DNA of 64,000 nt, taken from sequence record PP925844.1; one strand, 5' to 3'. The position numbers were made by a program, and so were the translations under genes. Position 1 is the first letter of the stretch. Each line of letters starts with the position of its first letter. Source of the stretch: Escherichia phage Elenatom. Under the pieces are notes generated by a model. It saw only the letters and a program-made list of their open reading frames with translations. It made no database searches and was not told where the DNA came from. Below are positions 40,630-42,113 of this stretch, piece after piece.

Positions 40630-41289
40630 TTAATTTATTAGACTTCTTAAACGAGCAGAAGTCATAAATGGAAATTTTTCTAAAGTTGGCTTTCGCCAAT
40701 ATCTTGGATGACAAGTTGATTTAAAATCAAGAACAATTTTCTTTGCTTCATCAATAGTGTTAACTCCAAAGTTATCTAACATTATTTTCTTTTCTTTTTC
40801 CCACCGTTTATTAGCTAAAGCAGATTGAAGCTTTTTGTTTTTAAATGTGTCATTTTTTCTAGAATGAGTTGTTCCTTGTGTCGGACTCCATCCTCTTCCT
40901 AAAATAAATCCCTCAGGAATTATATCTCCATCATGCAATTTTATACATCTTTTACCATTATTATAATATTTTCGTCCAGTTTGTGTATTTGAAATATTAT
41001 TTGCATGTTTTCTTTTTAACCAACCATAAACTTTATTATTTCTCCTAACATATTTAGTTGAAACCGTCATTTTTATGGCTGCATAAGATAATTTTAAAGA
41101 ATTTGGGTGTATTTTTACTAATAGCTGATGTGCAACATAATGCTCTTCTGGAGTTAAATCAACCAAGTTAGAAGCATCATTACTACCGCCTAAACATTTC
41201 GGAATAATATGATGTCTTTCTTTATATCCAGTAAGGGCTCTATTGCGAGCCCTATCAATTAGTGAATTATAAATTTTTTCATAATTCAT
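40630..41289 (-). CDS. HNH homing endonuclease (mob-like), inserted between genes 2 and 3
   Basis: HNH motif [31 protein letters not shown]; ATG of MNYEKIY overlaps gp2 stop (ATGA); paralog of ORF 9264..9896. Confidence 0.8.
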
Positions 41290-42113
41290 CGTACATTGCT
41301 CCAAACTTTGTTTGCAGAGAAACGTTTTCCTTTGGAGTAGAAGCTTTGGAGCGGCATTAACACAACGTTCGCCCAGTCTTTCGGGGCGATTTCAACAAGG
41401 CTACCCATAATATTACCAGGTATATATGCCTTAATCATTTGGTCTGCACCCCTAAATCCTTTCACTTGACTCCAATCAATTTTTAATTTCGTTTTATTAG
41501 TAATAGTAGGTGTATTTGCATATTGCTTTAAAAGCTCTTCTAGAAACTGTTGACGAGCTTTAGGTGGAATATAGTGCAAGTTCAATCCGTACATTAAATT
41601 ATGCTTACCTAAACCAAGGTAAATTATCAAAGGAAATTTATCCCAGTAAGGAAGAGTTTCCTTGTGTTTAGCATCATAAGCAAAAGCATATATTCGTCCC
41701 GGCTGCGGGCGAACAACTTTATGTCCTTTTACTTGCTTAATAGTTTCAGCAAACCACTTTCTGGTTTTATTATTAATTGCTGCGCCTTCATTACGAATTT
41801 TATCGCGCAATGTTTGTCTGAATGAATTTATCATAAGCAGTTGTCTTTCTTGCTTATTGAGTTTATTCATTGGTTTTGATTCAAGCTTTTGAATCTTTTC
41901 AGCCGTTTTAATTCCTGAAGCATATTTTGACATTGCTGAAGTAAACGTAGAGTATTTGATTCCTCTTTCTTCAGCAAATTGCTTTCCTGTCATTCCTTTT
42001 GCTTTGGCCTTTTTATATTCAAGACCTATCTGAATCCATTTCTTTTCGTTTAATGATTGCTTAACCTTTGGAACTTGGGGAGTGCTTTCATTAATTATTT
42101 GAAAAATAGCCAT
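41286..42113 (-). CDS. 2: DNA end protector gp2
   Basis: 275-aa ORF; position and length match T4 gp2. Confidence 0.85.

Follow-up and report, generated by a model that had tools for sequence, protein, structure and literature searches.

What is an additional reading frame doing between genes 2 and 3 of Escherichia phage Elenatom (PP925844.1)? These two genes are adjacent in the T4 annotation, as an earlier note on this DNA had stated. That note, which covered the whole analysed stretch of 64,000 nucleotides (hereafter, the window), had described the frame as a 219-aa HNH protein beginning MNYEKIY, inserted in the late operon and related to a second endonuclease encoded at an unrelated site of the same phage.

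The reading frame and its setting in the late operon

The frame and the neighbouring features on which the argument turns are the following.

42592 to 42599, minus strand: T4 late-promoter consensus TATAAATA, 27 nt before the gene 4 ATG, located by pattern search
41286 to 42113, minus strand: gene 2 (DNA end protector), 275 aa in the window versus 274 aa in T4
40630 to 41289, minus strand: the extra ORF, 219 aa plus stop, with its ATG at 41289..41287 and its TAA at 40632..40630, from the ORF list and translation
40524 to 40629, minus strand: spacer between genes 2 and 3, 106 nt, which holds the gene 3 Shine-Dalgarno sequence GAGG
39993 to 40523, minus strand: gene 3 (tail completion / sheath stabiliser), 176 aa, with its ATG at 40523

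The ORF list and the translation agree with the protein described earlier, the longer span of 40630..41304 first given for it being that of the longest ORF (224 aa from an upstream TTG). Its HNH motif and its place in the late 4-2-3 transcription unit were likewise found as claimed. Moreover, the gene 2 TGA (41288..41286) does share bases with the endonuclease ATG in an ATGA overlap, and gene 3 does keep its own Shine-Dalgarno sequence, with its ATG 106 nt past the HNH stop. Apart from the extra ORF, the minus-strand gene order of the window (57B, 57A, 1, 3, extra ORF, 2, 4) is that of T4, and the plus-strand genes 53 and 5 come after gene 4. In T4, gene 3 ends at 75954 and the gene 2 stop begins at 76061, with no annotation in between. 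An empty junction in relatives, which had been proposed as a check, was found as a base-precise empty site in T4 and most relatives, and the ORF is therefore not a syntenic feature of all of them. The gene lies between two conserved, intact genes, in their orientation and outside any intron or intein.

The late-promoter consensus at 42592..42599 is the only copy on the minus strand between gene 4 and gene 1, no terminator-like site was found on the minus strand of 39900..42700, and scans for sigma-70 promoters and terminators over the same interval gave no excess over shuffled sequence. Because the sole nearby late consensus lies before gene 4 and the region holds no terminator-like site, the endonuclease gene appears to be a promoter-less cassette in the late 4-2-3 message. 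A promoter-less layout with an overlapping start has been described for mobA, mobC, mobD and mobE of T4 and linked to low-level, coupled translation (PMC2988022); the mobC cassette overlaps its upstream gene in the same way (PMC2988022), and the mobE start codon overlaps the stop of its upstream gene, as in the gene 2/3 endonuclease (PMC2790892 and PMC2988022). MobB, in contrast, is reported with its own upstream promoter (PMC2988022), which the gene 2/3 endonuclease lacks.

A hairpin that sequesters the ribosome-binding site has been reported for mobE, in a study cited by PMC2993671. The gene studied here has just a weak, non-conserved AU-rich hairpin: the candidate, an 11-bp AU-rich stem at 41288..41263 over the UG of the start codon (z -1.9, with 7 of 200 shuffles as stable), is not conserved in the Gaprivervirus or Moonvirus orthologues and was rejected as a mobE-like structure.

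Protein family, catalytic motif and T4 relatives

The 219-aa protein matches PHROG 655 ('homing endonuclease', E 1e-58) and has 2,933 homologues at E<=1e-5 in a large protein database; about two dozen homologue clusters are full-length, at 46-63% identity, and in the remainder the similarity is confined to the N-terminal 45-60%. Among 29 aligned homologues, the most distant of them at 38% identity, H26, H27, N41, H50 and H54 are invariant, as are Y3, Y22, E24, P30, C32, G35, L45, E49 and others. The five residues named first fit the pattern that defines the HNH superfamily: a catalytic His on the first strand, an Asn located between the two strands and a His/Asn metal ligand in the helix that comes next. 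The Pfam gathering scores are not reached by the protein (HNH_5, 17.8 versus 27.5 bits; HNH, 16.5 versus 21.4 bits), and the Pfam HNH matches span residues 23-44 only; these sub-threshold scores reflect a short, divergent motif and do not conflict with the evidence from individual residues.

An AlphaFold2 model built on the 29-homologue alignment (mean pLDDT 89) has a strand at residues 24-27, a second at 42-45 and a helix at 47-60, beyond which come two short hairpins and a C-terminal domain made of helices. In this model, which is confident overall, residues 24-60 would make up the beta-beta-alpha unit expected of an HNH site. Foldseek against the PDB gave HNH domains as its top matches, all of them weak (E 0.4-1), and a sequence search of the PDB with the protein gave no relevant match. 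The predicted domains, all from the AlphaFold2 model, are as follows.

Residues 1 to about 100: predicted N-terminal beta-beta-alpha catalytic domain
Central part: predicted beta-strand region
C-terminal part: predicted helical domain

A BLASTP search against all ORFs of the window returned a single paralogue.

9264 to 9896, minus strand: mobC, HNH endonuclease gene between nrdD and nrdG, identical to T4 MobC at 209 of 210 aa

The likeness to it, 34% identity over the N-terminal 134 aa (E 3e-18) with nothing beyond, bears out the earlier claim of N-terminal homology to the nrdD/nrdG endonuclease. The claim that two family members occupy unrelated sites in one phage also stands, the nrdD/nrdG member being T4 mobC itself; MobC and the gene 2/3 endonuclease are of one family and differ in their C-terminal domains and sites, which are unrelated. 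The closest T4 paralogue is MobB, with 45% identity over the N-terminal 126 aa (E 2e-30), including the MNYxxIY start and the HNH motif. The mobB gene is likewise free-standing, between a-gt and a-gt.2, whereas the C-terminal half of its product and its insertion site differ from those of the gene 2/3 endonuclease. The N-terminal domain is thus homologous to T4 Mob proteins by three measures (MobB, MobC and PHROG 655), and, since this homology stops before unrelated C-terminal halves, the protein has the usual modular build, with a common N-terminal catalytic domain and a lineage-specific C-terminal part that is presumably DNA-binding. Such an architecture fits two family members at unrelated sites.

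T4 MobE, encoded between nrdA and nrdB, is also a free-standing HNH gene product as here, although its target gene differs, and the tblastn matches annotated as mobE have an N-terminal similarity of ~45-54% to the gene 2/3 endonuclease. MobE is the only T4 mob endonuclease with demonstrated activity, targeting a conserved neighbouring gene and driving homing and co-conversion (PMC2790892 and PMC2988022); the activity of MobA-D is entered as 'not determined' (PMC2988022).

Some observations concern the other sites at which T4 carries such genes. The T4 mobB site is empty in the window (3258..4718, minus strand), where T4 has the 264-aa mobB: a 400-aa ORF (3258..4460) is followed by 66 nt and then by a 63-aa ORF (4527..4718, minus strand). 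The 400-aa ORF was placed as alpha-glucosyltransferase by size and position, and the identity of both ORFs is taken from their size and order. The nrdD gene (9893..11710, minus strand, 605 aa), which adjoins mobC, is uninterrupted, and the T4 nrdD group I intron with I-TevII is therefore absent from the window. MobC and NrdG both start with MNYDRIY, with 18 of 21 nt identical (9876..9896 versus 9254..9274, minus strand); as the endonuclease family starts with MNYxxIY, this likeness may be a coincidence or a trace of mobC insertion before nrdG. Eleven closely packed tRNA genes (Arg, His, Asn, Tyr, Met(CAT), Thr, Ser, Pro, Gly, Leu and Gln) lie at 35845..36862 on the minus strand, ten of them also reported by Rfam. 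A motif scan found no GIY-YIG-like ORF of at least 80 aa in the whole window, and thus no segB-like gene among the tRNAs.

Occurrence in relatives, junctions and the end of gene 2

The protein is 100% identical to RB32ORF146c of Escherichia phage RB32 (NC_008515 / DQ904452), which occupies the same site with the same junctions; it has been annotated in RB32 since 2006, reads 'similar to mobB; not conserved from T4 position' there, and is worded in the GenBank record DQ904452 as a 'putative site-specific intron-like DNA endonuclease'. VR7ORF161c of phage vB_EcoM_VR7 is an orthologue at the same site, annotated as 'similar to T4 MobB and RB32 ORF146c'. The window gene differs from these in nothing of substance and is the same element. 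Petrov et al. (2010) counted two mob-like HNH genes in RB32 (PMC2993671), and no paper was found under the names RB32ORF146c or VR7ORF161c in the searchable literature. The gene is a known, annotated and experimentally uncharacterised free-standing mob-type homing endonuclease gene and not a new feature; given the identical gene annotated in RB32, it is an ordinary one.

With 39900..42200 as query, a megablast search of 50,697 phage records gave 513 matching records, 36 of which match over the whole stretch and carry the insert; the others match with ~71% coverage, and ~93% of the records, T4 included, have an empty junction. At least four further T4-like lineages have orthologues (46-65% identity) immediately behind gene 2, where their presence is again sporadic.

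Gaprivervirus (UPEC07, VR7): gene carried by 9 of the 39 records of the UPEC07 set, the rest having an empty junction
Moonvirus (NM4.3, Ursula): gene carried by 4 of the 27 records of the NM4.3-related set, the rest having an empty junction
Serratia phages (SP1, 4S): orthologues directly after gene 2
Metagenome contigs: orthologues directly after gene 2

Two of the four carriers in the NM4.3-related set come from Klebsiella and Enterobacter phages, at ~77% identity. Sporadic presence beside a precise empty site, as in other mob genes, was found in Tequatrovirus, Gaprivervirus and Moonvirus. In a distant T4-like contig (Logan SRR13090265, 92..2221) the order is gene 2, endonuclease (258 aa, 46% identical), gene 4-like, Y07E, Gly_radical and gp6, which differs from the T4 order 4-2-3. 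As all orthologue loci lie after gene 2, one of them as gp2-HEG-gp4, the linkage of the endonuclease gene is to gene 2 and not to gene 3.

The junctions were defined by alignment of the window with RB32, the empty relative fFiEco06, T4, CT01, 215Ecol030PP and L14. The net insertion relative to T4-type genomes is 659 bp. At the right junction the gene 2 TAA has given way to the endonuclease TAA and the spacer is unaltered, its length of 106 nt being common to the window, T4 and the HNH-less fFiEco06; since the insert ends exactly at the old gene 2 stop, the expression signals of gene 3 are untouched. At the left junction, gene 2 differs from the T4 type in two places.

41286 to 41306, minus strand: recoded gene 2 3' end, in which GTTTGGAGCAATGTACGATGA (..VWSNVR*) replaces GTCTGGTCAAATATCTAA (..VWSNI*); it travels with the insert
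41334 to 41351, minus strand: patch of 18 nt in gene 2, 9 of them substituted, with CTCCAAAGCTTCTACTCC in the window versus CTTCAGCAGTTCGTTTCA in T4-type phages (LQSFYS versus LQQFVS)

The end codons of gene 2 change from GTC TGG TCA AAT ATC TAA to GTT TGG AGC AAT GTA CGA TGA, and the switch of the Ser codon from TCA to AGC creates a GGAG (41302..41299) 9 nt before the endonuclease ATG. With this recoded end and the GGAG, the cassette supplies both a substitute terminus for gene 2 and a ribosome-binding site for itself. The idea that the endonuclease gene derives its last codons from a degenerate copy of the former gene 2 terminus was rejected, the match (10/14 with one gap, AT-rich) being too weak.

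Against fFiEco06, 10 of the 14 mismatches in the 1,116-nt left flank fall within 19 nt (the 9 of the patch and one private to the window), with 4 in the remaining ~1,100 nt; the right flank, of 1,100 nt, has 3. The carrier-type patch also occurs in about 14 Tequatrovirus records that lack the endonuclease gene, for example 215Ecol030PP (1262..1279 of its locus sequence) and FL12; one of these records is 'T4_ev151' (LR597660), even though T4 proper is of the opposite type. In three genera, the substitutions that separate carriers from non-carriers cluster in the final ~65 nt of gene 2, which may be an indirect sign of cleavage near the insertion site; their positions vary from genus to genus, and in Moonvirus the QSF motif occurs both with and without the endonuclease gene. 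Because the substitution clusters differ in position and QSF occurs in both states, no single conserved target site can be named from the carrier and non-carrier alleles of the three genera. The patch may be a target-site polymorphism that confers immunity, a scar of co-conversion with a diverged donor or, in patch-type empty genomes, the trace of a precise loss. A more far-reaching and rather doubtful idea, to which about one chance in several might be given, is that this endonuclease family line may have followed the gene 2 3' end across five or more T4-like lineages, in which case the patch would mark the recognition or cleavage site and the ~14 patch-type empty genomes would hold cleavage-resistant alleles; otherwise the patch would be a neutral scar of co-conversion or what is left of a precise loss.

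Mobility and rival explanations

The endonuclease interior has 0 mismatches in 641 positions between the window and RB32, against 27 in 1660 in the flanks (Poisson P 3e-5), and 1 in 641 between the window and Salmonella phage Manna, against 44 in 1660. An interior far less diverged than its flanks needs recent horizontal movement, and these comparisons point to a recent horizontal spread of the gene. Between orthologues, dN/dS is 0.13 for UPEC07 versus VR7 (synonymous difference 38%) and 0.11 for NM4.3 versus Ursula (25%), which indicates purifying selection and a function that has been maintained. Some copies are damaged. FL23 and FL44 have a common 1-nt deletion at the equivalent of window position 41110 that splits the ORF (in FL23, 831..1489 of its locus sequence), and Shigella phage CT01, alone among the matches listed, has an internal deletion of ~486 bp that leaves the first 13 and the last ~44 codons as a 57-codon remnant (2231..2404 of its locus sequence). 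In Manna (PP987310), a T4-type gene 2 terminus (..AGTCAAATATCTAA) stands in for the final 12 nt of the endonuclease gene; with the stop lost in frame, the annotated 431-codon ORF fuses endonuclease, spacer and gene 3 (194..1489 of its locus sequence). This fusion looks like the product of recombination at the right junction, or a sequencing error; it is compatible with the degenerate-copy idea for the endonuclease end without proving it. Together, the decayed, recombinant and patch-only empty loci could represent stages in the life cycle of a mobile element.

The reading preferred here, with a probability of roughly 85%, is that the ORF is a free-standing T4 'mob'-type (HNH) homing endonuclease gene that colonised the 3' end of gene 2. 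The endonuclease is considered real and probably active, its nuclease activity, its cleavage site and its transfer between phages being deduced from comparisons of sequence. According to this model, late transcription of the gene would start at the gene 4 promoter, and its translation, coupled to that of gene 2, would yield little protein. DNA would be nicked or cut by the N-terminal beta-beta-alpha-metal domain, and the lineage-specific C-terminal domain would direct the enzyme to the conserved gene 2 3' end in a co-infecting phage without the gene. Repair of the cut genome by recombination with the carrier genome would then bring in the gene together with a short stretch of its flanks (intronless homing, marker exclusion), and the carrier itself could be protected by the insertion, by the 18-nt substitution patch or by both.

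It is improbable, yet the least so of the rival explanations, that the gene is a defunct selfish element, intact only through recency, which no longer cuts and hitch-hikes in the late operon until it decays. T4 MobA-D are without demonstrated activity (PMC2988022), decayed copies do exist in CT01, FL23/FL44 and Manna, and the 36 Tequatrovirus copies are too similar for selection to be measured among them. However, the low dN/dS values were obtained between within-genus orthologues with ample synonymous differences, the catalytic residues have stayed invariant in all 29 aligned homologues, the same site is occupied in several genera and the interior is much less diverged than the flanks. Purifying selection and recent horizontal spread thus make a dead element unlikely. 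Slightly less probable again is a domesticated nuclease that benefits the phage, by cleaving the DNA of co-infecting relatives around gene 2 at late times of infection, or by helping gp2/gp4 to process DNA ends. There are reports of interference competition mediated by an intron endonuclease of PhiPA3 and of anti-defence loci whose amplification is promoted by SegB (PMC11620839 and PMC13096335); purifying selection and the adjoining genes for DNA-end protection and head completion would also suit such a role. Nevertheless, a gene absent from ~93% of close relatives and from T4 is not needed for head/tail assembly or DNA-end protection, and nothing in the sequence separates a benefit to the phage from selfish drive. 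Domestication overlaps with the homing model and is compatible with it.

The HNH motif within a morphogenesis gene cluster and the 'intron-like' wording of DQ904452 might also bring to mind a terminase-assisting packaging protein, as in HK97-like cos phages, or an intron-encoded endonuclease, both of which the evidence effectively refutes, leaving them with hardly any probability. The gene does not adjoin the terminase genes, is dispensable in most relatives and does not fall within the terminase-associated HNH group. Gene 2 has its own stop codon and gene 3 is intact, which means that no gene is interrupted, and across the window Rfam gives no group I or group II intron family at or above its gathering score. 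Distribution and the lack of an intron family at the Rfam threshold are what decide against these two readings.

The homing endonuclease reading adds one more member to the well-known set of free-standing homing endonucleases that make T-even genomes mosaic, and, with an identical gene already annotated in RB32 and the gene present in dozens of other phages, its importance goes little beyond correct annotation. Its modest value is that, for a mob-type enzyme yet to be characterised, the material for comparison is unusually clean: a precise empty site, a short cassette, three states of the putative target, decay intermediates and same-site orthologues in several genera. The gene 2/3 endonuclease would be convenient to work with in mapping the target site of a Mob enzyme and in measuring co-conversion, and it calls for caution in phage phylogeny based on gene 2 or gene 3 markers. 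If the resistant-allele idea were true, the susceptible empty, resistant empty and occupied states would constitute a visible arms race at an essential head gene.
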